Below, one piece after another: positions 18,076 through 52,656 of a DNA stretch of 64,000 nt (its first letter is position 1; the number at the start of each line of letters is the position of its first letter). The stretch covers positions 1 through 64,000 of IMG/VR virus record IMGVR_UViG_3300005611_000002; one strand, written 5' to 3'. The notes below the pieces were generated by a model. That model was given only the letters and a program-made list of their open reading frames with translations. It did not search any database and was not told the DNA's origin. The position numbers were made by a program, and so were the translations under genes. The DNA comes from a virus. Taxonomy: Duplodnaviria; Caudoviricetes.

Positions 18076-18987
18076 ATGAGTCTATTAGACAAGTTAGTCA
18101 AAAATAGTACTATCAAGATGACGTCACCACTCGATAGTTCTAAGGTGTTTGGTAAAAAAGAAATGGCTCCAACACCAGTTCCTATGGTGAACGTGGCGCT
18201 ATCTGGAAAAATTGATGGCGGTCTTTCTCCTGGTCTTTTGTTACTTGCCGGTCCATCTAAGCACTTCAAATCAGCATTTGCTTTGCTTATGGCAGCGGCT
18301 TATTTGAATAAGCATGATGATGCTATTCTACTCTTTTATGATTCGGAATTTGGTACGCCTCAAGCATACTTCGAGTCATTTGGAATTGATATGAGCCGAG
18401 TAGTTCACACGCCTATCGTGAATGTAGAAGAACTTAAATTCGACATTGTAAAACAACTTGATAGTATTGAGAAGAAAGACAACGTTGTGATTGTCATTGA
18501 CTCGATTGGTAACCTTGCGTCAAAGAAAGAAGCAGACGATGCACTTGACGGTAAGTCTGTTGCTGATATGTCTCGTGCAAAGGCTCTCAAGTCTTTATTC
18601 CGTATTGTGACACCGCATCTTAATTTGAAGGACATTCCTTTGATTGCGGTAAACCATACATATAAGGAAATCGGCCTCTTTCCGAAAGATGTAGTATCTG
18701 GCGGATGCGTTGCGGCCGGAACTGAAATCCAAACTCCAGGTGGATTGAAAAAAGTTGAAGATTTTAATGTAGGCGAACGAGTTGTAACGTTGAGTGGCGA
18801 ACAAGTCGTGTCTCACGTTTGGAACCCAGATACACTGGAAGAAGGAAATCCAGAGTGTTATGAAATAACATTTGAAGATGGGTATACCGTCGTTGTATCA
18901 GATAAACACAAATTCCTTGTTGATGGAAAATGGATCGAAACAAAAGATCTAGTCGTTGGGTTGGATTGCACTGTATTAAATACCTAA
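18076..18987 (+). CDS. uvsX: UvsX (RecA-like) N-extein + split intein N-fragment (18706-18984)
   Basis: GPSKHFKS Walker A, YDSEFG, IDSIGN; intein block A CVAAGTEI, block B SDKHKF. Confidence 0.93.
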   Translation: MSLLDKLVKNSTIKMTSPLDSSKVFGKKEMAPTPVPMVNVALSGKIDGGLSPGLLLLAGPSKHFKSAFALLMAAAYLNKHDDAILLFYDSEFGTPQAYFESFGIDMSRVVHTPIVNVEELKFDIVKQLDSIEKKDNVVIVIDSIGNLASKKEADDALDGKSVADMSRAKALKSLFRIVTPHLNLKDIPLIAVNHTYKEIGLFPKDVVSGGCVAAGTEIQTPGGLKKVEDFNVGERVVTLSGEQVVSHVWNPDTLEEGNPECYEITFEDGYTVVVSDKHKFLVDGKWIETKDLVVGLDCTVLNT

Positions 18988-19028
18988 AATAACATAAATT
19001 ATAAATATAGGTATCTAATATAAAGGAG

Positions 19029-19829
19029 GTGCCTATGCATATTGTTTATCGTTTAATATTCAATAAAAGAAAAGAAAGACTAGAAGAGCCGTATATGTAC
19101 ATTGGATCTAAATCGAATTGTAAAATAGAAAATAATTTGATAATTGATACTAACGGTAAAAAATATTACGGCTCTTCAAGCATAGAAAATTGGGAAACGC
19201 TAATAAGTGAAGATGATATAACTGTTGAAGTGTTAAAAGAATTCGAAGAATACGTAGATGCGCTGAATTTTGAATCTGCTATTCAAAAAAGTTTAGATGT
19301 TGTTGCATCAACAGAATATTTTAATTTATCTATAGCTACAGTAAATTCTTACGCGGATCCTTCTTATGCAACATATAAGCACGTGAGAACTGGCAAATGT
19401 GTTAGGCTACCAAGAAATCATGAAAAGGTATTGACGGGTGAATACGTTGGGGTTACTAAAGGCACAGTTTTATCTGAGGATCAAAGAAAAAAGAGAGGCA
19501 GATCAGGCAAACTAAATCCATTTTACGGAAAAAGTCATACTGAAGAAACAAAAAGAAAAATTTCTTTGGCTAATAGTGTTGAAACTAGATCGCCTGAAAA
19601 GGTAGAAGAATGGATAGAAAGAGTTGCCAAGAAACCAAAAACAAAAGAACACAAGGAAAAAATAGGTAGAAAAAATCTGTTAATGTTAAAGAATGTACAA
19701 ACTGGTGAATGTATTCGAATACACAAATCGTTAAAAGAAGAATTCGATCCAAACATCTGGATGAACCCATATTCAGCAAAATTATTTTTAGAAAAGAGAA
19801 AGGAAAATAATGAAAATCTCATCGATTAA
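19029..19829 (+). CDS. Free-standing GIY-YIG-like homing endonuclease with NUMOD3 (start probably 19035)
   Basis: IVY...YIGSK, YYGSS, YFN; NPFYGKSHTEETKRKIS. Confidence 0.8.
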   Translation: MPMHIVYRLIFNKRKERLEEPYMYIGSKSNCKIENNLIIDTNGKKYYGSSSIENWETLISEDDITVEVLKEFEEYVDALNFESAIQKSLDVVASTEYFNLSIATVNSYADPSYATYKHVRTGKCVRLPRNHEKVLTGEYVGVTKGTVLSEDQRKKRGRSGKLNPFYGKSHTEETKRKISLANSVETRSPEKVEEWIERVAKKPKTKEHKEKIGRKNLLMLKNVQTGECIRIHKSLKEEFDPNIWMNPYSAKLFLEKRKENNENLID

Positions 19830-20361
19830 AAACGTTGGGAGAAAACCAGTATATGATCTATCTGTATCTGAAGTCGAACACTATGTTTTAAAAAACGGGG
19901 TCGTGACACATAATACTGGGATTTATTACTCGGCAGACGCAATCTGGATTATCGGTCGTCAACAAGACAAAGTTGGTACCGAGATTCAGGGCTATCACTT
20001 CATCATCAATATCGAAAAATCTCGTCACGTCAAGGAAAAATCTAAGATTCCGATTAGCGTGAGTTGGGAAGGCGGCATTGTCAAGTGGTCTGGTTTGATG
20101 CAAGTGGCTGAAGAAGGTGGATATGTTCGCAAACCAAAAACCGGTTGGTACGAAGCGGTCGATCCGAGTACAGGTGAAATCATTTCCGATAAGATGATGC
20201 GCGCTAAGGAAATGACAAATAATCCTGAGTTCTGGCAAAAAATGTTCAATGATACAGATTTTGCTGCGTATATTACAAAACGATATACTGTGGGCTCTTC
20301 GGGTAGTATTATCAAGGACGATGAATACGTTGAAGATGAAGCAGAAGACACCGAAGAATAG
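19810..20361 (+). CDS. uvsX: Split intein C-fragment (35 aa) + UvsX C-extein
   Basis: KPVYDLSV...NGVVTHN/TGIYYSADAIWIIG, EKSR.VKEK. Confidence 0.93.
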   Translation: MKISSIKNVGRKPVYDLSVSEVEHYVLKNGVVTHNTGIYYSADAIWIIGRQQDKVGTEIQGYHFIINIEKSRHVKEKSKIPISVSWEGGIVKWSGLMQVAEEGGYVRKPKTGWYEAVDPSTGEIISDKMMRAKEMTNNPEFWQKMFNDTDFAAYITKRYTVGSSGSIIKDDEYVEDEAEDTEE

Positions 20362-20421
20362 TGTTGACAAATCTTCATCAAAGTTATATAATACTTACTC
20401 GTATAATTGAAAGGGTTATGA

Positions 20422-21747
20422 ATGCTGGAAAAAACAATACTATCGAATCTGATTCTCAACGAAGAATATTCGCGTAAAGTTTTTCCATACATCAAAGAAG
20501 ATTACTTCGAAGAAACCAGTATCAAGAGAGTTTTTTCAACTTACGCACAATATGTAGAAAAGTACAAAGAGTCTCCTTCATTGGAGGCTCTTAAGATCTC
20601 TTTGGATAAGCGAAAAGATCTGAACGAGCAGTCTTACAAAGATGTAATGGAAGTTGTCGACGATGTAAAGCTCGACGAAAATACAAACAATGATTGGCTC
20701 GTAGAAGAAACAGAAAAGTTCTGTCAGGACCGTGATCTCTATAACTCAATCAGGCGTTCTATTTTGATCCTAGATGGCCAAGACAAAGAGTTTGATAAGG
20801 GTTCCATTCCAAAGCTTCTATCGGACTCTCTGGGCATTAGCTTTGACACTAGTGTCGGTCATGATTTTCTTGAAGACTTCGAAGAACGATTTGAATACTA
20901 TCATCGCAAAGAAGAACGACTGCCATTTGATATTGAACTTATCAATAAGGTCACAAAAGGCGGTTTACCTCGCAAATCTATGACAGTGCTACTCGCAACT
21001 ACTGGCGGTGGCAAAAGTTTGTGTAAATGTCACATGGCAGCTTCAAACTTGATGTACGGAAAGAACGTCTTGTATATTACGATGGAACTTGCCGAAGAAG
21101 AGGTGGCTCGTCGTATTGATGCTAATATCATGGACATCACTCTTGATGAAGTGAAAGAATTGCCGCTCAAGACATTTCAAACAAGAATGAGTAGATACAA
21201 GTCAAAGACTACTGGTCGTCTCGTAATCAAAGAATATCCAACCGGTTCTGCTCACGTTGGTCACTTTCGGCATCTGATCAATGAACTTCATATGAAAAAG
21301 AACTTTGTTCCTGACGTGATCTTTGTTGATTATCTAAACATCTGTGCTTCATCTCGTGTTCGAGGCGCCGCTGCGGCTAATTCCTATACACTTGTCAAGT
21401 CCATTGCAGAAGAAGTTCGTGGTCTTGCTATGGAGTTTAATTGCGCAATTGTGACATCATCACAGTTCAATAGAGATGGATATTGTTTAGATTTGAATAC
21501 GATGGTAGAAACCGATAAAGGCAAAACAAAAATATCAAACATCAAAATCGGTGATAAAGTTCTTTCAAATACAGGTTTCAATACTGTAACTAATGTTTAT
21601 GAACAAAAAGAAAAAGAAGTTTATGTAATAAAAACTAAAAGCGGAAAATCTATTATATGCTCCGAAGATCATTTATTTCCAACAGAAGAAGGTGAAATAT
21701 CTATTCGAACAGGACTTGCGGTCGGTAAAAAATTATATGAAAAATGA
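20422..21747 (+). CDS. 41: Replicative helicase gp41 N-extein + split intein N-fragment (21484-21744)
   Basis: TGGGKS, YITMEL, IKEYPT, VDYLNIC; CLDLNT...CSEDHLFPT. Confidence 0.95.
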   Translation: MLEKTILSNLILNEEYSRKVFPYIKEDYFEETSIKRVFSTYAQYVEKYKESPSLEALKISLDKRKDLNEQSYKDVMEVVDDVKLDENTNNDWLVEETEKFCQDRDLYNSIRRSILILDGQDKEFDKGSIPKLLSDSLGISFDTSVGHDFLEDFEERFEYYHRKEERLPFDIELINKVTKGGLPRKSMTVLLATTGGGKSLCKCHMAASNLMYGKNVLYITMELAEEEVARRIDANIMDITLDEVKELPLKTFQTRMSRYKSKTTGRLVIKEYPTGSAHVGHFRHLINELHMKKNFVPDVIFVDYLNICASSRVRGAAAANSYTLVKSIAEEVRGLAMEFNCAIVTSSQFNRDGYCLDLNTMVETDKGKTKISNIKIGDKVLSNTGFNTVTNVYEQKEKEVYVIKTKSGKSIICSEDHLFPTEEGEISIRTGLAVGKKLYEK

Positions 21748-21748
21748 T

Positions 21749-21795
21749 CAATGTTGACCTAACTTATATAAATAATAACGGTTAGGTCAACATTG
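21749..21795 (+). promoter_or_regulatory. 15-bp inverted repeat enclosing a T4 late promoter
   Basis: CAATGTTGACCTAAC / GTTAGGTCAACATTG around TATAAATA (21767-21774). Confidence 0.8.
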
Positions 21796-21803
21796 GAGAT
21801 AAT

Positions 21804-22562
21804 ATGAAGGTAAATTACAGAAAAATTTGGGAAGAACACAATAACAAGAAAATACCTAAGGGTTATCATATACATCACGTTGATGGTGATAAAAATAATA
21901 ATGACCCTTCAAATCTTATGTGTGTTTCACCAGAAGAACACTGGCTAATACATTATTTGCAAGGTGATCCCGTAGCATTATATGGCAAATTTGTTCAAGG
22001 GGCATCAGAGGCTGGTAAAAAGGGAGGCGCGGCAGGTAAAGGCAAAATAATTACAGAAGAACAAAGATTGAAACAGTCAAAATCTCTAAAAGAAACATAT
22101 AGAAAAAGAGGAAAATCTTGGAGAAAGGATTCTAAACTAACCGAAGATCAGAGAAAAAGAATATCCGTAGTAACAAAAGGTGAAAATAATCCCATGTATG
22201 GCAAATCTCACTCTGCAGAAACTCGAAATAAGATTAGTGAGACTAAAAAAAGAAAAATAGAAACCGGAGAAATAATACCGCACAAAACAATCCACTCAGA
22301 AGAAACAAGAAAAAAAATCAGTGACAAGCGAAAAGAATATTATGAAAACGGTGGTGTTTCTCCTTATGCAAATGTGTATGACGTTTTTGATTGTAATTCT
22401 TTATTATGTGAAAACAAATCTAAAAGTGAAATAGAAAAAGAATTGGGTATTAGTGATAAAACTTTTAGAACAATATACACTTATTGTAATAGGAATAAAA
22501 AAATACACCCCAAGCACGAAATCTTAATTTTGAAAAAGGGCAAATATCATGAAATTAGATGA
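21804..22562 (+). CDS. Free-standing HNH homing endonuclease with NUMOD3
   Basis: HIHHVDGDKNNNDPSNL...EH..H; NPMYGKSHS. Confidence 0.9.
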   Translation: MKVNYRKIWEEHNNKKIPKGYHIHHVDGDKNNNDPSNLMCVSPEEHWLIHYLQGDPVALYGKFVQGASEAGKKGGAAGKGKIITEEQRLKQSKSLKETYRKRGKSWRKDSKLTEDQRKRISVVTKGENNPMYGKSHSAETRNKISETKKRKIETGEIIPHKTIHSEETRKKISDKRKEYYENGGVSPYANVYDVFDCNSLLCENKSKSEIEKELGISDKTFRTIYTYCNRNKKIHPKHEILILKKGKYHEIR

Positions 22563-23016
22563 AATAATTTCTATTGAAAAGCTAGATAAAAGAAAAACTG
22601 TAGATATTGAAGTATCTGGGAATCACTTATTTTACGCGAATGGTATATTGACGCACAATTCAAATTCAGACGTTGATCTCACAAATACGTCAGAATCCAT
22701 GGGTATCACTCACACTGCTGATGCAATCTTTGCTTTGATTACATCCGAAGATCTTGAAAGTCGTGGTCAACTGATGATCAAACAGCTGAAAAATCGTTGG
22801 GGTGACCTAGGATACTACCGTCGATTTGTTGTTGGTATTGATCGGTCAAGAATGAAACTCTACGATCTTGAAGACTCTGCTCAAGATAATATTCAGAGTG
22901 AAGCAAGTAAAGCTGTAAATAGCGATGATAGTCCAACTTTTGACAAGACGGACTTTGGTATGAGTGTAAATGACAAACGCAAAAAACTTTTTGAAACAGA
23001 TGGAGAATTGTTGTGA
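22549..23016 (+). CDS. 41: Split intein C-fragment (37 aa) + gp41 C-extein
   Basis: DIEVSGNHLFYANGILTHN/SNSDV..TSESMG..TAD, KQLKNR. Confidence 0.95.
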   Translation: MKLDEIISIEKLDKRKTVDIEVSGNHLFYANGILTHNSNSDVDLTNTSESMGITHTADAIFALITSEDLESRGQLMIKQLKNRWGDLGYYRRFVVGIDRSRMKLYDLEDSAQDNIQSEASKAVNSDDSPTFDKTDFGMSVNDKRKKLFETDGELL

Positions 23017-23204
23017 GCTACGTCGTAAAGGAACTCGAAGGAACCCGTGGTATTGTCGAAACCGACACTGACACGTTTATTCATATGAAAAAGAAAAGCG
23101 AAAAAGAAGTACTGGATATTGCACGTAAACTGAACCTCGGTAGCGGTTTTAATGGTTGGACACCGCAATTTTTTGCTGGTATAAATAATAGAAAAAAAGA
23201 GTGA
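23013..23204 (+). CDS. Hypothetical protein
   Basis: LNLGSGFNGWTP.FF motif, coupled to gene 41. Confidence 0.7.
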   Translation: MSYVVKELEGTRGIVETDTDTFIHMKKKSEKEVLDIARKLNLGSGFNGWTPQFFAGINNRKKE

Positions 23205-23208
23205 AGGT

Positions 23209-24168
23209 ATGATTTCTTTCAAGCGATTTCTCAATGAGGAAAAGAAGATGCAAAAAATGACGCCAGCTGAGTGGCTTAAGTATGATTGGCGAATAGAAGT
23301 ATTTCTTAGAAAATATAGAGACAAAGAAATTTTCGAACTTGCTAATGGCAAGAAAATGATCTTCGATTATGATAAAGGTGTAGAAAGAGACGTTGCTTCT
23401 CGGAACCGAAAGAAAATAACGGATGTAAGACTTTTTGGTGCCACAGACGGCAAGATATATAGAATGAGTGATATAGGTAAAAGCGCTGAATTTGGTGGTA
23501 AAGGCGCTGGAGCAAGCACTGCAAAAGAAGATGCAGAACTCAAGTCTCTTAGAAATCAGCTCAACGATATAAAAGCCGATCTTGCGATGCCTACGGTACC
23601 AATCAAAATAGGAACTAAAGTTTACAAAGTTTTTGATGCCGAAAGTACTCCAGGCACGCCGAAGTCTGATTTTCATCTACTGGATTCTAATGGAAAAGAA
23701 ATTGTTTGGATATCTCACAAAGACGGTAGTAGACCAAAAGACTTTCAGCAGTGGGGTGGTATTTCACGAAGAAACGAACCAGATATATTCAGACATCCTG
23801 AAGTACAAGCTTTCATAAAAGATCTAAAAGAAAAATACCCGGATGGTCTTCCGCGTGCTACAACTCTGTATCGAAAGATTAAAGACGATAAACTCAAGAA
23901 GATGAGCGTGTATGGGAATCAGTATGGTCGCCCTTTAGGAAGACAAAATGTTTCAATAATGATACAAGGCCCAGTAAAGCTTAAAATGTCAGGCTCCGCG
24001 TATGAATTTGTTTCAAACCACGTACATTTGAATGGCGAAGACATGACCGGCGGTTTTGAACCAGTTCTTACTGCAATTTATAAAGGTGATCGTAGTGATG
24101 CGGGTGTAAAAGGTACCAGAATTGTGATTATGCCCATTGAAGGTAGAAAAATGACAGGAGAATTCTGA
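23209..24168 (+). CDS. Hypothetical protein, possible PD-(D/E)xK nuclease fold; capsid-targeting-like N-terminus
   Basis: MISFKRFLNE; PKSD...WISHK..FQQWGG; late promoter upstream. Confidence 0.65.
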   Translation: MISFKRFLNEEKKMQKMTPAEWLKYDWRIEVFLRKYRDKEIFELANGKKMIFDYDKGVERDVASRNRKKITDVRLFGATDGKIYRMSDIGKSAEFGGKGAGASTAKEDAELKSLRNQLNDIKADLAMPTVPIKIGTKVYKVFDAESTPGTPKSDFHLLDSNGKEIVWISHKDGSRPKDFQQWGGISRRNEPDIFRHPEVQAFIKDLKEKYPDGLPRATTLYRKIKDDKLKKMSVYGNQYGRPLGRQNVSIMIQGPVKLKMSGSAYEFVSNHVHLNGEDMTGGFEPVLTAIYKGDRSDAGVKGTRIVIMPIEGRKMTGEF

Positions 24169-25403
24169 TGTTATCATTCAAACAGTATCTCAACGAAGAA
24201 AAAAATCTACACATGACGCACGCCGAAGATGCAGTCATTGACGGCGGAGTGACTGGAACTCGTAACGTAATCAACTATTTCCGTGCTCTTCGTGATATGC
24301 TGTCAGGTAACTCAAAAGCTCCAGTCAATGTAAGCGTGAAATGGGATGGAGCTCCAGCAGTTTTTGCTGGTATTGATCCTTCTGATGGTAAGTTCTTTGT
24401 GGCAAAGAAAGGAATTTTCAACAAAAATCCCAAGGTATACAAGACTGATGCTGATATTGATGCTGATACAAAAGGTGATTTGAACAACAAGCTTAAGCTC
24501 GCGCTTGCTGAGTTACCAAAGCTTGGTATTACAGGAGTGGTTCAGGGTGATTTCCTCTATTCGAGAGACGATATCAAAGAAGATACTATTGATGGAGAAC
24601 CGCATATTACTTTCCATCCTAATACGATTGTTTATGCGGTACCAAAGAAAAGTGGACTTGCAAAAAAGATACTCAGATCCAAGATCGGAGTGGTATGGCA
24701 CACAAAATACCGAGGAGACTCTTTTGAAACAATGCGAGCGAGTTTTGGCGAGGAGATTGCAAGCGATCTCAAAGAAGTAAGTTCTGTTTGGTCTGTTGAT
24801 GCCGTATTCAAGGATCTATCCGGTAGTGCTACAATGACCGCAGCTGAAACGAAAAAAGTGACTCAAATGCTTTCCGAAGTTGGTAAAATCTTTAGAACTG
24901 TTGGACGTGATGCTCTCAATGGTCTATCTGATAATGAAGAACTAAGGCTTCGCACGAATGTGTATATTAATAGTAAAGTTCGTGAAGGTCAACGTGTTGG
25001 TAATCCGAAGGTATTTGTTCGGGGTCTAATCAAATACATCGAAGACTACTATCAAAAAGAAGCAGATAAACGAAAGACCGAAAAAGGCAAGCAAGCACAA
25101 TATGATAAACGTGACTCGGTGCTTGAGTATTTCAAAAAGAATGATACTCGAAAGGTAGAACAGATTTTTGAAATGTACAATTTACTCGTTGACATCAAAC
25201 ATATGATCATCGGAAAACTCAATCAAGTCGAAGGTTTGAAAACTCTTCTGAAAACAAATAAAGGTTATGAAGTCACAGGTCAAGAAGGTTTTGTTGCTAT
25301 TGATCACTACGGTAAGAATGCACTCAAATTAGTAGATCGCCTTCAATTTTCCAAGGCTAACTTCTCACCCGATTATATCAAAGGATTCGAAAAAAGAAAC
25401 TGA
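24168..25403 (+). CDS. Conserved T4-like hypothetical protein with ligase-like KWDG motif
   Basis: MLSFKQYLNE; VKWDGAPA, QGD, EGFVA, KLVDR. Confidence 0.7.
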   Translation: MLSFKQYLNEEKNLHMTHAEDAVIDGGVTGTRNVINYFRALRDMLSGNSKAPVNVSVKWDGAPAVFAGIDPSDGKFFVAKKGIFNKNPKVYKTDADIDADTKGDLNNKLKLALAELPKLGITGVVQGDFLYSRDDIKEDTIDGEPHITFHPNTIVYAVPKKSGLAKKILRSKIGVVWHTKYRGDSFETMRASFGEEIASDLKEVSSVWSVDAVFKDLSGSATMTAAETKKVTQMLSEVGKIFRTVGRDALNGLSDNEELRLRTNVYINSKVREGQRVGNPKVFVRGLIKYIEDYYQKEADKRKTEKGKQAQYDKRDSVLEYFKKNDTRKVEQIFEMYNLLVDIKHMIIGKLNQVEGLKTLLKTNKGYEVTGQEGFVAIDHYGKNALKLVDRLQFSKANFSPDYIKGFEKRN

Positions 25404-25460
25404 TATATCTCAATTGAAAAGTTTGTTTTTATAAATAGTAATACATTATAGGAGAAAACC

Positions 25461-26336
25461 GTGTATTACATTTATTGGATAAAGACTAAAGACCAAACTA
25501 ACATATTGAGTGAAGGATACGTTGGTTTTTCTAGTAATCCTGAAAGAAGATTATTAGAACATAAAGTTTCAAATACCGTTGTCGGAAATGCAATAAGAAA
25601 ATATGAAAATGATATAGAACTTGTTGTCCTTTATGAATTTAATAACGAAATAGAAGCACTCAAAAAGGAAAAAGAACTTAGACCTAAAAAAAGAATTGGT
25701 TGGAATATTGCGATTGGTGGACAAGTGCCGCCTCCAATCAAAGATAATACTTCAGCAAAAGAAAAAATATCAAAAACTATAAAAGAGATGGGTGTTATTC
25801 CATACTGTGAAAAAACTCATTCAAAAGAAACTATCGAAAAATCCACAAAAACTAGACTAGATAAAAAATATAGGTGGTATTATAACGTAATTACACTAGA
25901 AACAAAAATTTATGCAACGGCAGAAGAAATAATACCAAATGGTTGGGAACCCGGCAAAAAACCAAAGATAAAAAACACAAAGAAAATAAGAAATGTAGAC
26001 TATACGTGCAATGCAAAATCTTGGATCGTGTACAAAAATGGAAATTATTTTGCAAAAGTAAATAATTTAAAAGAATGGTGTGAATCTAATGAAATAGACT
26101 ATATAGCACAATCAAGAACAAAGGCAGTAAGAAAAGTAAACCGTGTAGAAAAATATAAAATTGAAATTTCAAATAAAAATACCATTATCGAAAATGATAT
26201 CGATACCAAATTGACTAAGTCTGAATATGCTTTAAAAATAAATAGATCTAGATCTTTTATTTCAGTAGTTGTTAAACGCGGCTTCTATGAAAATAAAATA
26301 TACGATATTTACTCGTGTAAAGAGGATAAGCGATGA
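25461..26336 (+). CDS. GIY-YIG homing endonuclease
   Basis: IYWI...GYVG.S.NP.RR..EH, GWN..GG; late promoter. Confidence 0.8.
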   Translation: MYYIYWIKTKDQTNILSEGYVGFSSNPERRLLEHKVSNTVVGNAIRKYENDIELVVLYEFNNEIEALKKEKELRPKKRIGWNIAIGGQVPPPIKDNTSAKEKISKTIKEMGVIPYCEKTHSKETIEKSTKTRLDKKYRWYYNVITLETKIYATAEEIIPNGWEPGKKPKIKNTKKIRNVDYTCNAKSWIVYKNGNYFAKVNNLKEWCESNEIDYIAQSRTKAVRKVNRVEKYKIEISNKNTIIENDIDTKLTKSEYALKINRSRSFISVVVKRGFYENKIYDIYSCKEDKR

Positions 26337-27718
26337 GCGCGATAAATGAATTCAAAAAGTTATTAGCAGAAGCCGCTAAGGAACAAAAGCAGAAAACAAT
26401 TGAAATTGCTGAAGAAGAGTCTATCGTCAACAAGACTGCTCGGTATCTACAGACCAAAAACGATGATATTCCTGCAAAGCCCTCAGATATAGAAGCTCAG
26501 AGATGGAATGACCCACTTCGCCCGTTAGATCAGAAGTTTGTGACATTCAAAGATATGAATGATCACTACGGATTGTTCTTGCAGCGTATTCAACAACAGA
26601 TGTCAACATTAAGTGGTGGCGGCGAAGTCAAGTTTCGTTATCTAGATGATGTCAATCGAGCTACTATGACAGACTCGAATGATAACCACCTCTTAGAATA
26701 CGATGTAAGCTCAGGTAAAGTTCAATTCACAGATATTATAGGCCCTATTGAGCAGATTAGTTTCAATACTAGTCATACGCATCAAGAAGAGCGAGTACCT
26801 GGTACTCTCTGCTGGGATACGGATGACCAAACTCTGAATTTGACCCATCCGGGTGATGTAACTCAACAAATCGGTCAAGAACAATACGCTAAAGTTCGTA
26901 ATGGTACTGCTAACACTATCGTAAATGGAACTGCGGTTCAATTCATTGGCGCTGAACAAAATGGAACTGCAAGACTTTTAGCTGGACCGATGCTAGCCGA
27001 TGGCACATATCCAAGTCTTTACGTTTTAGGTGTTGCAACGCAAGACATCGAGCCCGGCGAAGACGGAAAAATTACTGTTTGGGGTAAAGTTCGTGACCTC
27101 GACATGTCAGCTTTTAGCGTCGGTGATCTTCTTTATGTAAGTGCAAATACCGCAGGCGGTCTTACAAATGTAAAACCAACTGCGCCGAACAACGTAATAC
27201 CGATAGCGGCTGTACTTAATAATGACTCAGAAGTTGGTGAAATTTTCGTTCGTCCTACAATTGAACAACAACAATACTACGGAAGATTTACAAGACTTAC
27301 TGATCAAACCGCTGTAAATCCCAATGAAGCAACTGCAGTACAATTTGACACCGTCGATATTTCGAATGGAGTTATTTTTAATGGCGGATCAAATACACAG
27401 ATACAAGTTACAGATTCTGGTTTTTATCAATTTGATATTTCTGCACAGGTGACGGCAAGTTCAAATAAGGGTATTGCATATTTTTGGTTCAGAAAGAATG
27501 GTACTGACGTGGAACATTCTACAAGATCGACCACTGTTACAAATGGAGATACCTTCAACGTTTCTACTACAATAGCGCTATCACTCGACGCTGATGATTA
27601 TGTAGAAGTAATGTGGGCAAGATCTGCGTCTGGTATCTTTTTGGACGCAAGAGCAGCAACGGCTTTTGCTCCTTCTGCTGCTGCGTTCATGCTGAATGTG
27701 GTACAGGTTCAGCTATAA
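26333..27718 (+). CDS. Putative virion structural/fiber-like protein with C1q-like C-terminal domain
   Basis: GGGGEVKFRYLDDV motif, beta-rich C-terminus (SGFYQF, DYVEVMW). Confidence 0.6.
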   Translation: MSAINEFKKLLAEAAKEQKQKTIEIAEEESIVNKTARYLQTKNDDIPAKPSDIEAQRWNDPLRPLDQKFVTFKDMNDHYGLFLQRIQQQMSTLSGGGEVKFRYLDDVNRATMTDSNDNHLLEYDVSSGKVQFTDIIGPIEQISFNTSHTHQEERVPGTLCWDTDDQTLNLTHPGDVTQQIGQEQYAKVRNGTANTIVNGTAVQFIGAEQNGTARLLAGPMLADGTYPSLYVLGVATQDIEPGEDGKITVWGKVRDLDMSAFSVGDLLYVSANTAGGLTNVKPTAPNNVIPIAAVLNNDSEVGEIFVRPTIEQQQYYGRFTRLTDQTAVNPNEATAVQFDTVDISNGVIFNGGSNTQIQVTDSGFYQFDISAQVTASSNKGIAYFWFRKNGTDVEHSTRSTTVTNGDTFNVSTTIALSLDADDYVEVMWARSASGIFLDARAATAFAPSAAAFMLNVVQVQL

Positions 27719-44932: not shown

Positions 44933-45221
44933 TTGCGGAACTACCGTAGAACCAGTACAATCAGTCGAAGTTCGTACGGTTGAAGTAAAGCCTCCCAAAC
45001 CAATAGTACCGACTCCCGATCAACTTGCCCTTCGAAGCTTTGAATGGGTTGTGATCACACCAGATAATATTGACGAAGTGTTTAACGGAGTCAAGGATGA
45101 AAAGGTGCTATTTGCAGTTACTACTGACGGATATGAAGCAATTGCTCTCAATCTTTCTGATGTAAGAGCTTTGATACAGCAGCAAAAAGAAATCATCGCG
45201 ATCTACGAAAATTCATTCTAA
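44865..45221 (+). CDS. o-spanin (Rz1-like lipoprotein)
   Basis: Lipobox LASC, Pro-rich, overlaps the i-spanin 3' end. Confidence 0.75.
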   Translation: MQKLLDNSIPSVLGFTTLLFLASCGTTVEPVQSVEVRTVEVKPPKPIVPTPDQLALRSFEWVVITPDNIDEVFNGVKDEKVLFAVTTDGYEAIALNLSDVRALIQQQKEIIAIYENSF

Positions 45222-45287
45222 ATAAATAAATACGATTAACCATGGGTACAGTGACTTTTGAAAGCAAACAAAAGAGGATAGAGACCT

Positions 45288-45752: not shown

Positions 45753-45808
45753 CATTTTAGCTTACTTGATATAGAATAAATTATTCTAACATTACAGGAT
45801 GATTATGT

Positions 45809-46810
45809 ATGGTTGATCATGTCGACATGCACTATGCTTCAATACTTTCTTCGAGATTGGAGCGCTTCAAAATTGTTTCGAGAAATCCAGTCAAAATCAA
45901 TTTTAGGTGTCCCGTTTGCGGTGATTCTCAAAAATCGCGTTCGAAGGCCCGTGGATGGCTTCTTGAACGCAACAATGCCTTTTACTTCTATTGTCATAAT
46001 TGTGGTGCGAGCCAAGGCTTTTCTTATTTTCTGAAAAACCTCGATGGTATAGTCTACAATGACTATGTATCTGAAAAGTTTCTGAAGGGTGAAAAGAAAC
46101 CAAAATCTGACGATGGTAAATTTGCTACTCAGACTAAATTTAGCGGTGATCCACTTCGAAAGTTGACAAAAATCAGTCAACTCAAGCATGATCATCCTCT
46201 CAAGAAATACATACTCAAACGACAAATACCTTCCGACCAACACTACAGACTCTATTATGCTCCAAAGTTCAAGACTTGGATCAATAGTATCATACCAAAT
46301 AAATTTGGATACTTCAAGAAAGACGAGCCACGACTCGTTATACCTTTCCTAGACCAAGACAAAAAGATCTTTGGTGTCTCTGCTCGTGGCTTTGATCCAA
46401 AAGCTCCTAGATACATCACGATCATGTTTGACGATAGACCCAAGATTTTTGGTCTTGATACAGTCAATTTCAATAAAACATATCTTGTAGTTGAAGGCGC
46501 TATTGATAGTTTTTTCGTAAAAAATGCTGTTGCCATGGCTGGTGCTGAAGGGAATACGAACGCGTTACAGAATGTTGAAAATGCGATTTTTGTTTTTGAC
46601 GCAGAGCCGAGAAACAAAGAAATCCATAAGCGAATGGAGAAGGTAATAGATGCTGGCCATAGAATTTGCATATGGCCTTCTGATGTTCCAGGCAAAGACA
46701 TCAACGAGGTGTATATGAATGGACTTACAAACGTAGATGAACTGATTCGAGAAAATACATATAAAGGCTTGCAAGCCACACTGAAACTTACTGAATGGAG
46801 AAAAACATGA
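45809..46810 (+). CDS. 61: DNA primase gp61
   Basis: RCPVCGDS..KARG, CHNCG, EG.IDS, KDIN. Confidence 0.93.
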   Translation: MVDHVDMHYASILSSRLERFKIVSRNPVKINFRCPVCGDSQKSRSKARGWLLERNNAFYFYCHNCGASQGFSYFLKNLDGIVYNDYVSEKFLKGEKKPKSDDGKFATQTKFSGDPLRKLTKISQLKHDHPLKKYILKRQIPSDQHYRLYYAPKFKTWINSIIPNKFGYFKKDEPRLVIPFLDQDKKIFGVSARGFDPKAPRYITIMFDDRPKIFGLDTVNFNKTYLVVEGAIDSFFVKNAVAMAGAEGNTNALQNVENAIFVFDAEPRNKEIHKRMEKVIDAGHRICIWPSDVPGKDINEVYMNGLTNVDELIRENTYKGLQATLKLTEWRKT

Positions 46811-46850
46811 AGTTATAAATAATTCGTGAATTCTTGAAATAGGAGAAAAC

Positions 46851-47558
46851 ATGAATTACAAAAAAGTATATAAGGATCTTATAACAAAACACGGAAAAAA
46901 GGAAAAACCAAAAAACGGTTATTATGAGCGCCATCACATAGTTCCTAGATGTGTTGGAGGCGATGATAAAATTGAAAATTTAATATATTTAGATGCAAGA
47001 TGTCATTTGCTATCTCATTGGTTATTAACTAGAATGTATCCTGGAAATGAAAAACTTATACATGCTTTTTTTATGATGTGTAATGTTAAAAATAAATCAA
47101 TGAAAAGAAAAACTCCAAGATTATCTATTTTAGCTGAAGCTAGAAGAAAAAAATCTGAAATTCAATCAAAAAAACTAACAGGAAATAAAATACAATTTAA
47201 TACCGATGAAAGTAATAAAAACCGAATAAAGACCGCAAAATTAAATGGGTCTTATAGAGGTTTAAAAAATGGCAAATCACAACCAGTAGATGTTTATAAT
47301 TACTTTACCGGAGAATTAGTAGCATCAAATGTATCTGTAACGGAATGGGGTAGAGAAAACGATGTTAAGAGAAATCTAAATCAAACTCTTTACGCAGATA
47401 GATCTATAAAATCTAGTAGTGCTAATAGGCATCACGCAAAGGGGTACTATATAGTAAAACACGGCGCTGATCCTTATCCAGCTGTCGGCGGCGAATATTT
47501 AGGGCCCTATTCAAATCAAGGACACATAGGACTGAAAAAAGTTAGAAGGAAAAAATAG
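46851..47558 (+). CDS. HNH homing endonuclease
   Basis: ERHHIVPRC.GG.D..NL..L.AR.H...H; late promoter. Confidence 0.88.
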   Translation: MNYKKVYKDLITKHGKKEKPKNGYYERHHIVPRCVGGDDKIENLIYLDARCHLLSHWLLTRMYPGNEKLIHAFFMMCNVKNKSMKRKTPRLSILAEARRKKSEIQSKKLTGNKIQFNTDESNKNRIKTAKLNGSYRGLKNGKSQPVDVYNYFTGELVASNVSVTEWGRENDVKRNLNQTLYADRSIKSSSANRHHAKGYYIVKHGADPYPAVGGEYLGPYSNQGHIGLKKVRRKK

Positions 47559-47559
47559 C

Positions 47560-48228
47560 ATGAAAGTTAATTTGGTAGCATATACTATACCCACAAAGGA
47601 AATGCAGGATGAAGGCGTAAAAAATATTAAAGATTTGATCGCGTATTGTGCAAGAGTATCAAATCCTTCAAATCAATTCAATACAGAAACTTATAATAAA
47701 CTAATAAAATATTTATTGGACCACAAACATTTTTCGCCTTTTGAGATGGCAAATATTACGTTAGAAATTGAAACTACAAGAGATATTGCTCGCCAGATCA
47801 TTCGTCATCGCTCTTTTACATTTAGCGAATTTAGTCAGAGATATGCTGATCCTGCTGAATTTGGTAATCAATTTGTAATTCGAGAAGCTCGACTTCAGGA
47901 TGAAAAGAATCGTCAAAATTCTATTGAAACAGACGATATAGCATTACAAGCTTGGTGGGATGTTCAACAAAAATTTATGATTGAAAGTGCAAAAAGAATT
48001 TACAAAGAAGCAATAGAGCGTGGTATTGCTAAAGAACAAGCTCGAGTTATCCTTCCAGAAGGCAATACTAAAACGAGACTATACATGAATGGTACTCTTC
48101 GTTCTTGGGTACACTATATTGAACTTCGCTCTGGCAATGGAACACAGAAAGAGCATATGGAAGTAGCTCGAGCAGTTGCAGAAGCCATTTCAAAAATCTT
48201 TCCTATGATCAACGACTTTATTGAGTAA
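47560..48228 (+). CDS. thyX: Flavin-dependent thymidylate synthase
   Basis: RHRSFTFSEFSQRY. Confidence 0.95.
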   Translation: MKVNLVAYTIPTKEMQDEGVKNIKDLIAYCARVSNPSNQFNTETYNKLIKYLLDHKHFSPFEMANITLEIETTRDIARQIIRHRSFTFSEFSQRYADPAEFGNQFVIREARLQDEKNRQNSIETDDIALQAWWDVQQKFMIESAKRIYKEAIERGIAKEQARVILPEGNTKTRLYMNGTLRSWVHYIELRSGNGTQKEHMEVARAVAEAISKIFPMINDFIE

Positions 48229-48373
48229 ACTTTGTGAAACAATGCAACATGTATAAGATTGCTCCTAATAAATACTACATATTGACATAAAATCGCAAAT
48301 CCTAAAAATCAGTTTCAGGCACGTATTTGCGTGGGTCTGTTCTTTTTCAACAATAACAACAAGAGGTACTAAC

Positions 48374-49657
48374 ATGTTCGACAATTCTTCACCTGCAGAA
48401 TATGTCAAAACTGTAAACTATGTTCTCAAACGAGACGGTTCTACAGAAGATTTCGATCAAGAAAAAATCAAGACTGCCGTTTCTAAAGCTATGAAATCAA
48501 TTGGTATTCGAAGTAAAACACTACCGGTCGAAGTTTCTTCAGAAGTGACTGAAGTACTCAATAGAGAACATATTGACGATGTGGTTGTGAATGTAGATGA
48601 AGTACATAAAACGGTCGAAAACGTGATCATGGACATGGGTCTTCACGACTTGGCTCGCGAGTACATTCTTTACCGCTTCAATAACATGCCGAACATCTTT
48701 CGTAAAAGAACAAACCTCAAGCCTTACGAGTATCCACAGCTTATTGAGTATCTAGAAGCAATCCGCCATTCATATTGGGTACATACTGAGTTTAATTATT
48801 CATCGGACATTCAGGACATGAAGGTTCGTATGACACCCGAAGAAGTAGATATTGTCAAGAAAGCAATGCTTGCTATTTCTCAGATTGAAGTTCAAGTCAA
48901 AACCTTCTGGGCAAAGATTGGCGATAAGATGCCAAAACCCGAAGTACAAGCTGTTGGTGTCACGTTTGGTGAATCTGAAGTTCGACATGCCGACGCGTAT
49001 TCAAATCTAATCGAGATCATGGGACTCAATTCAGAATTCGAAACAGTAGTAGATGTCCCCGCAATGAAAAAGCGAATTGCATATCTCGAACAATCAATTC
49101 AAGCACCAGTTGATGACAAGGATTATTTTCATAAGATAATCCTTTTTTCTATGTTCGTTGAAAATGTATCGTTATTCTCTCAGTTCTTGATCATGATGGC
49201 GTTCAACAAACATAAGAATGTGCTAAAGGGTATTTCAAATGCGGTGGAAGCTACCAGTAAAGAGGAAGATATTCATGCGCGATTTGGTTTTGAACTAGTA
49301 AACATTATTCGTGAAGAAAATCCAGATTGGTTCAATAAAGATACTATCAACGAAGTGAATCGTCTTTGCCGTGAAGCATATAAGGCAGAGGCTGCTATTG
49401 TTGATTGGATCTATGGTGATTCGGATTTAGATTTTTTACCAAAAGCTACCGTCAAAGAATTCTTGAAACATCGCTTTAATCAGTCTCTTACTGCTATTGA
49501 TATGAAACCTCTTTATGAAGTTGATCAAGCTGCTATTGAGACTACCGATTGGTTTGTTGAGGAAATTTTGAGTACAAAGAATATTGACTTCTTTGTCAAG
49601 CGTAGCACCGCATATTCAAAGAAAACAAAAGCATTTACATCAGACGATCTGTTTTGA
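48374..49657 (+). CDS. nrdB: Class I ribonucleotide reductase beta subunit with N-terminal ATP cone
   Basis: VLKRDG..E.FD..KI cone; ESEVRHADAY, EEDIH, DFF. Confidence 0.92.
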   Translation: MFDNSSPAEYVKTVNYVLKRDGSTEDFDQEKIKTAVSKAMKSIGIRSKTLPVEVSSEVTEVLNREHIDDVVVNVDEVHKTVENVIMDMGLHDLAREYILYRFNNMPNIFRKRTNLKPYEYPQLIEYLEAIRHSYWVHTEFNYSSDIQDMKVRMTPEEVDIVKKAMLAISQIEVQVKTFWAKIGDKMPKPEVQAVGVTFGESEVRHADAYSNLIEIMGLNSEFETVVDVPAMKKRIAYLEQSIQAPVDDKDYFHKIILFSMFVENVSLFSQFLIMMAFNKHKNVLKGISNAVEATSKEEDIHARFGFELVNIIREENPDWFNKDTINEVNRLCREAYKAEAAIVDWIYGDSDLDFLPKATVKEFLKHRFNQSLTAIDMKPLYEVDQAAIETTDWFVEEILSTKNIDFFVKRSTAYSKKTKAFTSDDLF

Positions 49658-49671
49658 TAAGAGGAAAACTA

Positions 49672-50733
49672 ATGGAAAAATTTTACTGGCTAAACGACGA
49701 TTCGAGGACATTTCTATCAAGAGGATACCTAAGCGAAGGAGAAACACCAGAACAACGCATTCGTGCCATTGCAGATAAAGCTGAAGAGTATCTAGGAATT
49801 CCTGGATTTGCCGATAAGTTCTATGAATACATGAGTCGTGGATATTACTCACTTGCATCTCCAGTGTGGGCGAATTATGGAAAGAAGCGTGGTCTTCCAG
49901 TATCTTGCTTTGGTTCATACATTGATGATAATATGGAGTCCATTCTATATGGTGTTGCAGAAAATGGAATGTTGATGAAGAATGGCGGCGGTTGTTCCGG
50001 TTACTTTGGTGCAGTTCGTTACCGTGGTGCGCCAATTACTGATCAGGGCGAGTCTTCAGGTTCTGTACACTTTATGCAAATGTATGACACTCTTGCTTCT
50101 GTTGTGTCGCAAGGTTCTGTTCGTCGTGGTTTCTTTTCTGCGTATCAAGACATTGAACATCCTGATGCAGACGAGTTTCTCGACATCGGTACTGAAGGGA
50201 ATCCAATTCAAGGCTTGACTACTGGTATTGTAGTATCAGATCAATTTATTGCTGAAATGAAAGACGGTGATCCAGAAAAGCGCAGACTTTGGGCAAAGGT
50301 ACTTCAACGTCGTTCTGAGATCGGTTTTCCCTACATTCTATACAAAGACAACGTGAACAACAATAAACCTCAAGTCTACAAAGACAAGGATATGACGATT
50401 CATGCAAGTAATATGTGCTTGCGCGGCGATAGTATTATGACCGTTTGGTTTCCTTTTGAAGAAACCCCTAAAGACATTGAAATTGAAACGTTCGTAAAAC
50501 TTTGGAAAATGGGAGGAGTTGCTCCTGGTACTAAGGTAAAAACTGAAAAAGGATACCAAGAAGTTACTGCTGCGGCACAAACTGGTGTCTCAAAAGAAAT
50601 GATTCGCATTACAGATGAAAAAACTGGAAAGGTTGTTGAATGCACCCCAGATCATAAGATTTTTACTCAGAATAGAGGTTGGGTGGAAGCTAAGGAACTT
50701 ACTGAAGAGGATGATGTCCTAATAGATGAATAA
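49672..50733 (+). CDS. nrdA: NrdA N-extein + split intein N-fragment (50416-50730)
   Basis: PVSCF, GGG, QGSVRRG, SNM/CLRGD; CTPDHKI. Confidence 0.93.
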   Translation: MEKFYWLNDDSRTFLSRGYLSEGETPEQRIRAIADKAEEYLGIPGFADKFYEYMSRGYYSLASPVWANYGKKRGLPVSCFGSYIDDNMESILYGVAENGMLMKNGGGCSGYFGAVRYRGAPITDQGESSGSVHFMQMYDTLASVVSQGSVRRGFFSAYQDIEHPDADEFLDIGTEGNPIQGLTTGIVVSDQFIAEMKDGDPEKRRLWAKVLQRRSEIGFPYILYKDNVNNNKPQVYKDKDMTIHASNMCLRGDSIMTVWFPFEETPKDIEIETFVKLWKMGGVAPGTKVKTEKGYQEVTAAAQTGVSKEMIRITDEKTGKVVECTPDHKIFTQNRGWVEAKELTEEDDVLIDE

Positions 50734-50751
50734 TCTCTAAACATAACACAG

Positions 50752-50804
50752 TGTAGCGAAATTTCTCTTTTTATAAATAATAAGAAAAGAGGGGTTTCGC
50801 TACA
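50752..50804 (+). promoter_or_regulatory. RBS-sequestering hairpin with a late promoter in the loop
   Basis: TGTAGCGAAATTTCTCTTTT / AAAAGAGGGGTTTCGCTACA around TATAAATA. Confidence 0.8.
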
Positions 50805-51646
50805 TGAACTATGAAAAAATATATTACGATTTGTGTGAGAAAGGCAAAAAAAGAAAAAAGATTCGAGGAGATAATTTAGAAAGACATCATATCATTCCAA
50901 CTTTTTTCTATAAAGACAATAAAAGAAATCATCGTCATAATGACGGTATATACTCTGGTGATGGTGAACACGTTGGAAATATAACCCTGTTGACACCTAG
51001 AGAACATTTTATTGCGCATTTGATTCTTTGTAAAATATGGAAAGGAACAAAATGGGAATATAGATGCTATTTGTCTTTGAAAATGTTTTTGAATGAAGGC
51101 CAAGTAAATAAAGCTCGTTCTGTATTTGAACATAGTTCCAGAAAATACGAATATTATAAAATAAAAGCAAATAAAGCCATAAGTAAAGGTAAAAAAGGCA
51201 CCATGCCGGTTAAAGATGTAAAAACGAACGAAAGACTCGGCATTGCAGCCGTAGATCATCCAAAAGTATTGAGTGGCGAATGGGTTCATATTACAAAGGG
51301 TATGAAGAAAACAAAAGAACAGAAGATGCTTTATTCAAAACCAGGTTTTGAAAACAGCAATTCAAAATATTCTGATGAAGACTTATTTCAATCATATAAG
51401 AAATGCTGCTATTACTATAACAAATTGGTCAGTGGATCTTTTTGGGTAAATTATTCGGAAAAGAATAATTTACCACACATAAAATTTTGGAAGCCGTTTA
51501 GATATAACGGAAGAGGATTTCTAGGAATGCAAAAAGATTTATTGAAAGCTGCGAATAAAGAAAACATATACATAGAAACATTTCCAGACTATTCAGATTA
51601 TAACTGGAGAAAGTTTGTAAAAGAGGAGAAAAACAAGTGGGTATAA
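50804..51646 (+). CDS. Free-standing HNH homing endonuclease
   Basis: ERHHIIP...N...LTPREHFIAH. Confidence 0.88.
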   Translation: MNYEKIYYDLCEKGKKRKKIRGDNLERHHIIPTFFYKDNKRNHRHNDGIYSGDGEHVGNITLLTPREHFIAHLILCKIWKGTKWEYRCYLSLKMFLNEGQVNKARSVFEHSSRKYEYYKIKANKAISKGKKGTMPVKDVKTNERLGIAAVDHPKVLSGEWVHITKGMKKTKEQKMLYSKPGFENSNSKYSDEDLFQSYKKCCYYYNKLVSGSFWVNYSEKNNLPHIKFWKPFRYNGRGFLGMQKDLLKAANKENIYIETFPDYSDYNWRKFVKEEKNKWV

Positions 51647-52656
51647 AAATCGAAAAAATTCAATACGAAGAGGAAATTCCAGTATACGATATCACAGTCC
51701 CTGAAACTAGTTCCTTTTTTGCAAATGATATATTAGTTCACAACTGTATTGAGATCGCGCTTCCTTCATCTACAGATGAAACATTTACCTGTGTTCTTTC
51801 TTCGCTCAATCTGTTACATTGGGATGAAATTCTAGAGACTGATGCTATCGAAGTACTTACAATGTTCCTCGACACCGTTTGTGAAGAGTTCATTCAAAAA
51901 ACTGAAGGGCATGAGTATCTCAAGCGCGCGCGTCAATTCGCGATCAATCACCGTGCTCTTGGTGCTGGTGTACTTGGTTGGCACTCGTATCTGCAGTCTA
52001 AAATGATTTCTTTCGAGTCAAAAGAAGCCGCGCAAAAGAACCTTGAAATTGCAAAGACTCTTCGTGAAAGATCTCATGCTGCTTCTCGTGAACTTGCAGA
52101 AAAACTTGGCGAACCACCACTGCTTCAAGGTTATGGTATGCGCAATACAACTACAATGGCTATTGCTCCAACTAAATCAAGTAGTTTCATCCTTGGTCAG
52201 GTAAGTCAATCTATCGAACCTGAGTTCTCGAACTGTTATGTAAAGGACTTGGCAAAGATGAAAGTCACAATCAAGAATCCTTACTTGAAGAAGCTGTTGC
52301 AAGAAAAAGATCAAGATAAGCCTGAAGTTTGGGAATCAATCAAGACACGTGACGGATCTGTTCAGCATCTTGAGTTCCTTACACAGGAAGAAAAAGAAGT
52401 CTTCAAGACGTTCTCAGAGATCAATCCTTACACAATAGTAGATCAAGCTGGTATTCGTCAACAATACATCGATCAAGGCCAGAGTCTCAATCTGATGCTG
52501 GATCCAGATATGTCAGTTCGTGAAATCAATCAACTCTATCTGTATGCTCACGAGATGGGTGTAAAGAGTCTTTACTATAGTTACTCGATGTCTGCTGCTC
52601 AGTCTTTGACTCGTAAGCGTGTAATGTCGACAGAATGTGCGGCGTGTGAAGCATGA
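51637..52656 (+). CDS. nrdA: Split intein C-fragment (36 aa) + NrdA C-extein
   Basis: PVYDITV...FFANDILVHN/CIEI; APTKSSS, KSLYY, C-terminal CAACEA. Confidence 0.93.
   Translation: MGIKIEKIQYEEEIPVYDITVPETSSFFANDILVHNCIEIALPSSTDETFTCVLSSLNLLHWDEILETDAIEVLTMFLDTVCEEFIQKTEGHEYLKRARQFAINHRALGAGVLGWHSYLQSKMISFESKEAAQKNLEIAKTLRERSHAASRELAEKLGEPPLLQGYGMRNTTTMAIAPTKSSSFILGQVSQSIEPEFSNCYVKDLAKMKVTIKNPYLKKLLQEKDQDKPEVWESIKTRDGSVQHLEFLTQEEKEVFKTFSEINPYTIVDQAGIRQQYIDQGQSLNLMLDPDMSVREINQLYLYAHEMGVKSLYYSYSMSAAQSLTRKRVMSTECAACEA

Follow-up and report, generated by a model that had tools for sequence, protein, structure and literature searches.

Probable split-intein cassettes in the uvsX, gene 41 and nrdA genes of an uncultured T4-like phage

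The window analysed here is the first 64 kb of the 194,645-bp IMG/VR record IMGVR_UViG_3300005611_000002. Its source is an uncultured T4-like myovirus, and the record has direct terminal repeats and a completeness rating of 100%. Three genes, uvsX (recombinase), gene 41 (DnaB-like helicase, product gp41) and nrdA (ribonucleotide reductase), share one layout. A first open reading frame (ORF) holds the host protein's N-terminal part (N-extein) and the N-terminal half of an intein (IntN), and is closed by a stop codon. It is followed by an endonuclease gene in another frame, and then by an ORF with the C-terminal intein half (IntC) and the rest of the host protein (C-extein). The N- and C-terminal parts of all three genes are in frame 1, and the endonuclease genes of uvsX, gene 41 and nrdA are in frames 3, 3 and 2, respectively. 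The first residue of the C-extein (+1) is Thr in UvsX, Ser in gp41 and Cys in NrdA. The features of the three loci are given below, with lengths in amino acids (aa) or nucleotides (nt).

18076-18705, + strand: uvsX N-extein (210 aa, ends VVSGG); RecA Pfam match, no gap before the junction in the alignment to intact UvsX from Stenotrophomonas phage DLP_6.
18706-18984, + strand: UvsX IntN (93 aa, Cys1, block B SDKH), then a TAA stop; TIGR01445.
18995-19048, + strand: spacer holding a T4-type late promoter, TATAAATA (19000-19007); a weak hairpin covers the ribosome-binding site and ATG of the endonuclease gene.
19029-19829, + strand: free-standing homing endonuclease gene (266 aa), frame 3; PHROG 7504 and 314 ('homing endonuclease'), Pfam NUMOD3.
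19810-19914, + strand: UvsX IntC (35 aa, ends VVTHN); TIGR01443, its own Shine-Dalgarno AAGGA, 20-nt overlap with the endonuclease gene end.
19915-20361, + strand: uvsX C-extein (148 aa, Thr+1, TGIYYSAD); T4_UVSX_C Pfam match, junction alignment.

20364-20392, + strand: perfect sigma-70 consensus TTGACA-17-TATAAT upstream of gene 41 (12/12 positions, a consensus match only).
20422-21483, + strand: gene 41 N-extein (354 aa, ends RDGY); DnaB_C Pfam match, junction alignment.
21484-21744, + strand: gp41 IntN (87 aa, Cys1, block B SEDH), then a TGA stop; TIGR01445.
21749-21795, + strand: 16-bp hairpin with TATAAATA (21767-21774) in its loop; the 3' arm adjoins the endonuclease ribosome-binding site.
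21804-22562, + strand: free-standing HNH homing endonuclease gene (252 aa), frame 3; Pfam HNH_3 and NUMOD3, PHROG HNH families.
22549-22659, + strand: gp41 IntC (37 aa, ends ILTHN); TIGR01443, its own Shine-Dalgarno, 14-nt overlap with the endonuclease gene end.
22660-23016, + strand: gene 41 C-extein (118 aa, Ser+1, SNSDV); junction alignment, intein-free allele in contigs L117 and L217.

49654-50415, + strand: nrdA N-extein (254 aa, ends ASNM); positions 11-261 of the TIGR02510 NrdE-prime model, junction alignment.
50416-50730, + strand: NrdA IntN (105 aa, Cys1, block B TPDH), then a TAA stop; TIGR01445.
50751-50805, + strand: 22-bp hairpin with TATAAATA (50772-50779) in its loop; the 3' arm holds the endonuclease ribosome-binding site and reaches the ATG.
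50804-51646, + strand: free-standing homing endonuclease gene (280 aa, no Pfam match), frame 2; PHROG 655 'homing endonuclease', E 2e-19.
51637-51744, + strand: NrdA IntC (36 aa, GTG start, ends ILVHN); TIGR01443 (40.5 bits), Shine-Dalgarno GAGGAG, 10-nt overlap with the endonuclease gene end.
51745-52656, + strand: nrdA C-extein (303 aa, Cys+1); TIGR02510 positions 259-560, aligned to the NrdA of RcXuper and Atu_ph07.

Intein models recover exactly these pieces. A six-frame search of the whole genome with TIGR01445 (intein_Nterm) and TIGR01443 (intein_Cterm) gives three places for each model, all above the curated cut-offs and all at the six pieces listed. The TIGR01445 matches are at 18706, 21475 and 50443, and the TIGR01443 scores are 33.4 (UvsX), 31.9 (gp41) and 40.5 bits (NrdA) against a cut-off of 15.6. 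The Pfam Intein_splicing model finds the same six pieces. Because the intein models match only these six sites of the genome, the arrangement is not due to chance. The residues are those of class 1 inteins, with Cys1 and a block B motif in each IntN (SDKH, SEDH and TPDH) and the C-terminal junctions THN/T (UvsX), THN/S (gp41) and VHN/C (NrdA). Cys1, Ser65 and His68 of the UvsX IntN are invariant in 120 aligned metagenomic clusters.

Removal of the inserts restores a contiguous host protein in frame at each locus, and precise empty sites exist in relatives. The joined exteins are 358 aa (UvsX), 472 aa (gp41) and 557 aa (NrdA) long, and all three junctions align without gaps to intact proteins. 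For UvsX the string VVSGG/TGIYYSAD is identical in DLP_6, and for gp41 RDGY/SNSDV stands against RGGY/DNSDV in the same phage. NrdA has ASNM/CIEI where RcXuper has ASNL/CSEI and Atu_ph07 has SSNL/CNEI, and its Cys+1 aligns with the Cys of this motif in the intact proteins. Of the 560 positions of TIGR02510, one NrdA half matches 11-261 and the other 259-560. All tblastn matches of the gene 41 N-extein to phage gp41 stop at residue 353 or 354. The gp41 protein is about 53-55% identical to that of Caulobacter phage Cr30, OM43 phage Melnitz, DLP_6 and cyanomyoviruses, and megablast of the locus gave no near DNA-level relative among GenBank phages. We gave no meaning to the fact that the N- and C-terminal parts share a frame, as inserts of relatives measure 1114, 1130, 1819 and 1219 nt, which are not multiples of three.

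The spliced NrdA (49654-52656, 557 aa, TIGR02510 type) lacks an ATP-cone, and the neighbouring NrdB (48374-49657) has an N-terminal one (Pfam E 1.8e-17). The allosteric domain is therefore on the small subunit.

We place at roughly 85% the probability that each of the three single-copy genes has been invaded by a mobile split-intein cassette, and that the two halves of each product are rejoined by trans-splicing. A preliminary description of the window, made from the sequence alone, had proposed this layout, and its coordinates, ORFs, junction motifs, lengths and frames proved exact at all three loci. It had also held that recombination, replication and deoxynucleoside triphosphate synthesis depend on splicing. 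This is borne out for the phage-encoded functions: none of the six extein segments recurs anywhere in the genome, and since these are the only copies of the three genes, the functions depend on joining the halves.

Each of the three intervening ORFs has matches among the PHROG homing endonuclease families. The N-terminus of the NrdA-locus endonuclease resembles that of an ORF with a Pfam HNH match at 46851-47558, and the N-terminus of the UvsX-locus endonuclease is GIY-YIG-like by eye. A sequence search of solved structures with these two endonucleases gave no match; their class rests on the PHROG matches, NUMOD3, the paralogue with the Pfam HNH match and motifs seen by eye. Further free-standing endonuclease genes in the window are the HNH gene at 46851-47558 and a GIY-YIG gene at 25461-26336, the latter with TATAAATA upstream at 25430. 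Such genes populate the genome densely.

At each locus the endonuclease gene lies on the same strand between the two halves, IntN has its own stop and IntC has a separate start that overlaps the end of the endonuclease gene. The spacers from the IntN stop to the endonuclease gene are 41 (UvsX), 56 (gp41) and 70 nt (NrdA). All three contain the late-promoter box TATAAATA, which occurs 22 times in the window against 4.2 expected, and a hairpin accompanies it at every locus. This hairpin is strong at gp41 (-23.8 kcal/mol, z-score -6.8) and at NrdA (-29.8 kcal/mol, z-score -8.4), where in both cases 0/200 shuffles fold as well, and weak at UvsX. Scans of the + strand between the halves showed no terminator-like site.

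These features suggest the following course of events. Each cassette would be a class 1 mini-intein whose central loop is broken by a free-standing homing endonuclease gene, and each would have invaded a conserved site of a single-copy DNA-metabolism gene. Early in infection every locus may be transcribed as a single mRNA, from which the N-extein-IntN and IntC-C-extein ORFs are translated separately, the latter from the Shine-Dalgarno of IntC. On such read-through transcripts the hairpin that buries the endonuclease ribosome-binding site would keep the endonuclease silent. Late transcripts that start at TATAAATA, inside the hairpin, would lack the 5' arm, so that the ribosome-binding site is free and the endonuclease can be translated. 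The intein halves are expected to associate into a HINT fold and to trans-splice, with Cys1 as the attacking residue and the +1 Thr, Ser or Cys completing the ligation. The endonucleases, in turn, may spread the cassettes to intein-free alleles of co-infecting relatives.

The homolog search in metagenomes and databases, which the preliminary description had named as a check, found the UvsX split intein widely and placed the gp41 intein in the gp41-1 family. A search of 5.8 billion proteins gave 136 clusters in which a UvsX IntN is fused to the N-terminal part of UvsX. Four clusters are contiguous UvsX proteins with a mini-intein of 129-131 aa at the same site. One such contiguous allele (L216:4634-5020) is 69% (IntN) and 80% (IntC) identical to the halves in the window. 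It is predicted to form a HINT domain (pLDDT 96.8), and its best PDB match is gp41-1, with a TM-score of 0.86 and a root-mean-square deviation of 1.7 A. The 174-kb contig L216 is probably from a cyanophage, because it carries heme oxygenase and bilin reductase genes. About 25 T4-like phages in GenBank, of Escherichia, Salmonella, Proteus, Yersinia, Shewanella, Vibrio and Pseudomonas, carry the UvsX split intein with an IntN that is 47-58% identical. Their records annotate two 'RecA-like' proteins around an endonuclease gene, and none of them is annotated as an intein. A full-text literature search found no published description of a UvsX intein or split intein.

In Yersinia phage vB_YenM_TG1 (KP202158; L213, L214) both uvsX and nrdA are fractured. 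Shigella phage ESh36 (L215) has a fractured gene 41. The records of TG1 and ESh36 show duplicated host coding sequences around the endonuclease gene and do not mention inteins.

Few of the closest IMG/VR relatives carry the cassettes, whose distribution is sporadic, and the empty sites are precise at all three genes. The uvsX gene is intact in 75/80 and split with an endonuclease gene in 5/80, with no contiguous mini-intein. For nrdA the gene is intact in 71/75, split with an endonuclease gene in 3/75 and interrupted by a contiguous mini-intein in 1/75 (L163, 432 nt). Gene 41 is intact in all 62 of the 62 that could be assessed, with neither a split form nor a contiguous mini-intein. The gp41 count leaves out the relative L008, which fell short of its criteria; in L008 the gp41 intein is split, and its halves have no endonuclease gene between them. 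In another relative (L004) the UvsX IntN is 85% identical to that of the window and the N-extein 58%; conservation is thus higher in the intein than in its host gene, which is what horizontal spread should produce.

The gp41 cassette is also missing from genomes nearly identical to the window. Two contigs, L117 (JGI 3300001748; 99.87% identical over 3.9 kb) and L217 (ENA ERZ27252103; 99.93% over 5.5 kb), contain the whole uvsX cassette and an intact gene 41. At the gp41 junction 10 substitutions fall within 21 nt (window 21472-21483 and 22660-22668 against L117:3913-3933 and L217:5490-5510). The intein-free junction reads NRSGY/DNSDV and that of the window NRDGY/[intein]/SNSDV, i.e. +1 is Asp in the former and Ser in the latter. 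A further contig from the same ENA sample as L217 (L218) carries the gp41 cassette with zero differences from the window at 21409-24334. Intein-free and cassette-bearing gp41 alleles are both found in ENA ERZ27252103, so polymorphism exists in the wild population. Of the three cassettes, that of gp41 seems to have arrived last. The nrdA cassette is present in sample 3300001748 too (contig L219). An exact-pattern scan for nrdA contigs of the same lineage and an exact look-up of the gp32 protein both gave no match. The mismatches between the window and the otherwise near-identical L218 cluster at 26425-26905, just downstream of the GIY-YIG gene at 25461-26336, and this cluster looks like another co-conversion tract.

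Three fractured genes are the highest count seen, in a small sample. Three complete relatives (201-221 kb) and a fourth one (91% complete) have no intein C-terminal match, and one relative has two. Both uvsX and nrdA are fractured in two partial IMG/VR records. In L083, uvsX and gp41 are both split with endonuclease genes, and L008 combines a split uvsX with its endonuclease-less split gp41. The 202-kb contig L220 (NCBI GCA_029782595.1) has, within the 16 kb examined, two split inteins in uvsX and a contiguous intein in the portal gene. The latter (L220:775-3822) encodes a T4-type portal protein of 1015 aa.

The preliminary description had further proposed that the three pairs are mutually orthogonal. 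The three inteins of the window are 24-28% (IntN) and 35-41% (IntC) identical to each other, and judged from this divergence mutual orthogonality is plausible, even likely. Net charge was dropped as an orthogonality rule: UvsX has a negative N-half and a positive C-half, gp41 the reverse and NrdA is negative in both halves, which gives no clean rule.

A second arrangement bears on the same question. In L129:900-4868 (IMGVR_UViG_3300025502_000435) and L220:6065-10582 uvsX is in three ORFs, with two split inteins 11 codons apart, each with an endonuclease gene. The middle ORF of L129 (141 aa) consists of the IntC of the first intein, the 11-aa extein SMFPTAVISGG and the IntN of the second, and both intein models match it above the cut-off. 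This middle piece (139-141 aa) is found in five clusters with 48-100% identity, in which AHN/S, SGG/C and the block B residues are invariant. The identity between the first and the second intein is 43% for both IntN and IntC. If spliced, the three-piece UvsX would be a natural protein that needs two orthogonal trans-splicing reactions. A cross-reaction would delete part of the recombinase, and selection for orthogonality should therefore be direct. Whether the co-resident split inteins (the three of the window and the two of the three-piece uvsX) make up a set shaped by natural selection and mutually orthogonal, with a hitherto uncharacterised Cys1/Thr+1 split intein as a member and with the gp41 locus as a case of homing in progress in a wild population, is in our view an evenly balanced question.

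Several observations weigh against the trans-splicing of three cassettes in one phage. Splicing is deduced from sequence, and so is the timing of expression. The UvsX IntN scores 24.1 bits in a per-ORF hmmscan, just below the TIGR01445 cut-off of 24.5, and the hairpin at the UvsX endonuclease gene has a fold z-score of -1.45, which is not significant. The HINT fold was modelled on the 69-80% identical contiguous relative and not on the window's own halves. Since the population is polymorphic for the gp41 cassette, this cassette may be a recent one and may carry a fitness cost. Finally, the record was assembled from metagenomic data on a polymorphic population, and the gp41 cassette is joined to the uvsX or the nrdA cassette in no independent contig.

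This last point leads to the best surviving alternative, which we nevertheless consider improbable. The three cassettes may not lie on one chromosome, the 195-kb record being a consensus path through a polymorphic population, and no virion would then need three trans-splicing reactions. Both gp41 alleles occur in one sample, where the assembler broke the contigs at the gp41 site, and the cassette-bearing L218 starts at window position 21244, short of uvsX. In JGI 3300001748 the contigs show a split uvsX, an intact gp41 and a split nrdA. Yet every contig of the lineage that covers uvsX (the window, L117 and L217) has the uvsX cassette, and L219, the only independent contig over nrdA, carries that gene's cassette. 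Haplotypes lacking these two cassettes are not known, so a genome with the gp41 cassette most likely carries both. The terminal repeats and the completeness rating of the record also speak for a single genome.

Slightly less probable still is that one or more of the cassettes are crippling recent invasions whose genes are inefficiently restored, the phage leaning on the host RecA or the host ribonucleotide reductase, or being less fit. The gp41 cassette would be the likeliest case, as it is missing from near-identical genomes and the closest relatives of its IntN are at most about 57% identical in very large databases. T4 can do without uvsX and nrdA, and a loss of UvsX or NrdA could be buffered by the host's RecA and ribonucleotide reductase. 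T4 gene 41, on the other hand, is essential, so that a non-splicing allele should not persist. Moreover, all the ORFs are open, the catalytic residues are intact, the gp41 cassette is identical in two independent assemblies and the gp41-1 family includes some of the fastest split inteins known.

It is very improbable that the intein halves act solely as a non-covalent dimerisation module, with no peptide bond being formed. Such a case would resemble Aeromonas phage Aeh1, whose fragmented NrdA is reported to assemble without splicing (PMC3045599). In the present cassettes, however, all four catalytic residues are retained (Cys1, the block B His, the terminal Asn and the +1 nucleophile), with no variation over 120 clusters of the UvsX family, and the intein-bearing gp41 allele has changed +1 from Asp to Ser, which is relevant only if the splicing chemistry is used. 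Removal of the inserts at the RNA level, as a group I or group II intron that carries an endonuclease gene, would fit the shared frame of the N- and C-terminal parts at all three loci but has next to no probability, given that no Rfam intron lies between the halves at E <= 0.1 in either region (the sole match is a sub-threshold microRNA model on the NrdA hairpin), that the insert flanks are intein halves with their own stop, Shine-Dalgarno and start, and that the insert length in several relatives is no multiple of three.

Fractured genes, first known from metagenomic fragments, are seen here three times in one complete genome, in the only genes for the recombinase, the helicase and the reductase. 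The relatives show, for these host genes, the stages of the gene-breaking model of 2009: the empty site, the contiguous mini-intein, the split intein accompanied by an endonuclease gene and the split intein without one. From the near-identical intein-free and intein-bearing gp41 alleles of one sample, both the probable target of the endonuclease and the co-converted tract can be read directly. The toolbox of orthogonal split inteins may gain candidates in the UvsX intein (Cys1/Thr+1) and in the diverged gp41-1 and NrdA alleles. Cultured phages with the same uvsX arrangement, TG1 with nrdA as well, allow tests in real infections.

The fractured-gene layout was described by Dassa, London, Stoddard, Schueler-Furman and Pietrokovski in 2009 (NAR 37:2560; PMC2677866) for gp41, NrdA, NrdJ, IMPDH, DnaE, DNA ligase and terminase. 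Their loci have the same order on one strand (N-extein-IntN, a short spacer, the endonuclease gene, IntC-C-extein), the end of the endonuclease gene overlaps the IntC start, and the endonuclease gene has a hairpin with a T4 late promoter upstream of it. This last arrangement was drawn for gp41-1 and nrdA-5 and likened to the endonuclease of Aeh1 nrdA (PMC2677866). The hosts likewise include gp41 and NrdA and the origin is phage. Published lengths are 88-105 aa for IntN, 33-54 aa for IntC and 27-51 nt for the spacers (PMC2677866); the spacers of 56 and 70 nt here exceed this range. Dassa et al. have a Vsr-like endonuclease family; the endonucleases of the window are HNH or GIY-YIG-like. UvsX is outside their eight host enzymes and appears there only as the upstream neighbour of gp41 loci. 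Furthermore, their loci are fragments assembled from reads, so that co-occurrence in one genome was not visible.

The gp41 intein is a diverged allele of the gp41-1 family. It shares with gp41-1 (PDB 6QAZ, 6RIZ) the host protein, the kind of junction (...GY/C...THN/S) and the lengths, and aligns without gaps with 47/87 (54%) identical residues in IntN and 26/37 (70%) in IntC. The C-extein starts with SNS here and with SSS in the published gp41-1. In a library of 1.8 billion proteins the closest gp41 IntN representatives are at most about 57% identical. According to Pinto et al. 2020 (PMC7090010), gp41-1 is among the exceptionally fast inteins, and gp41-1, gp41-8, NrdJ-1 and IMPDH-1 can be used together as an orthogonal set.

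The NrdA intein has the insertion site of the NrdA split inteins NrdA-1 to NrdA-7, directly before a conserved Cys, and its IntN of 105 aa is within the published range. Dassa et al. place this insertion point directly N-terminal to the thiyl-radical site (PMC2677866). The nearest solved relative is NrdJ-1 (8UBS; E 2e-8). The host differs from the known NrdA and NrdJ-1 split-intein cases, being a short NrdA of the TIGR02510 type that is paired with an ATP-cone NrdB.

The Dassa layout of 2009 thus already covers the gp41 and NrdA cases, and UvsX is a split-intein host outside the published ones, yet common in public sequence data. Yersinia phage vB_YenM_TG1, Shewanella phage Thanatos-1, Escherichia phage HY03 and Proteus phage Pm5461, among others, share the uvsX insertion site and the intein family. 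As to the novelty of the system, fractured gp41 and NrdA have been in print since 2009, the UvsX split intein is found even in cultured phages and phages with two fractured genes exist; what stands is the presence of three fractured genes in a complete genome, against one or two in the cultured phages. The case is a well-documented extension of a layout known since 2009, not a new kind of system.

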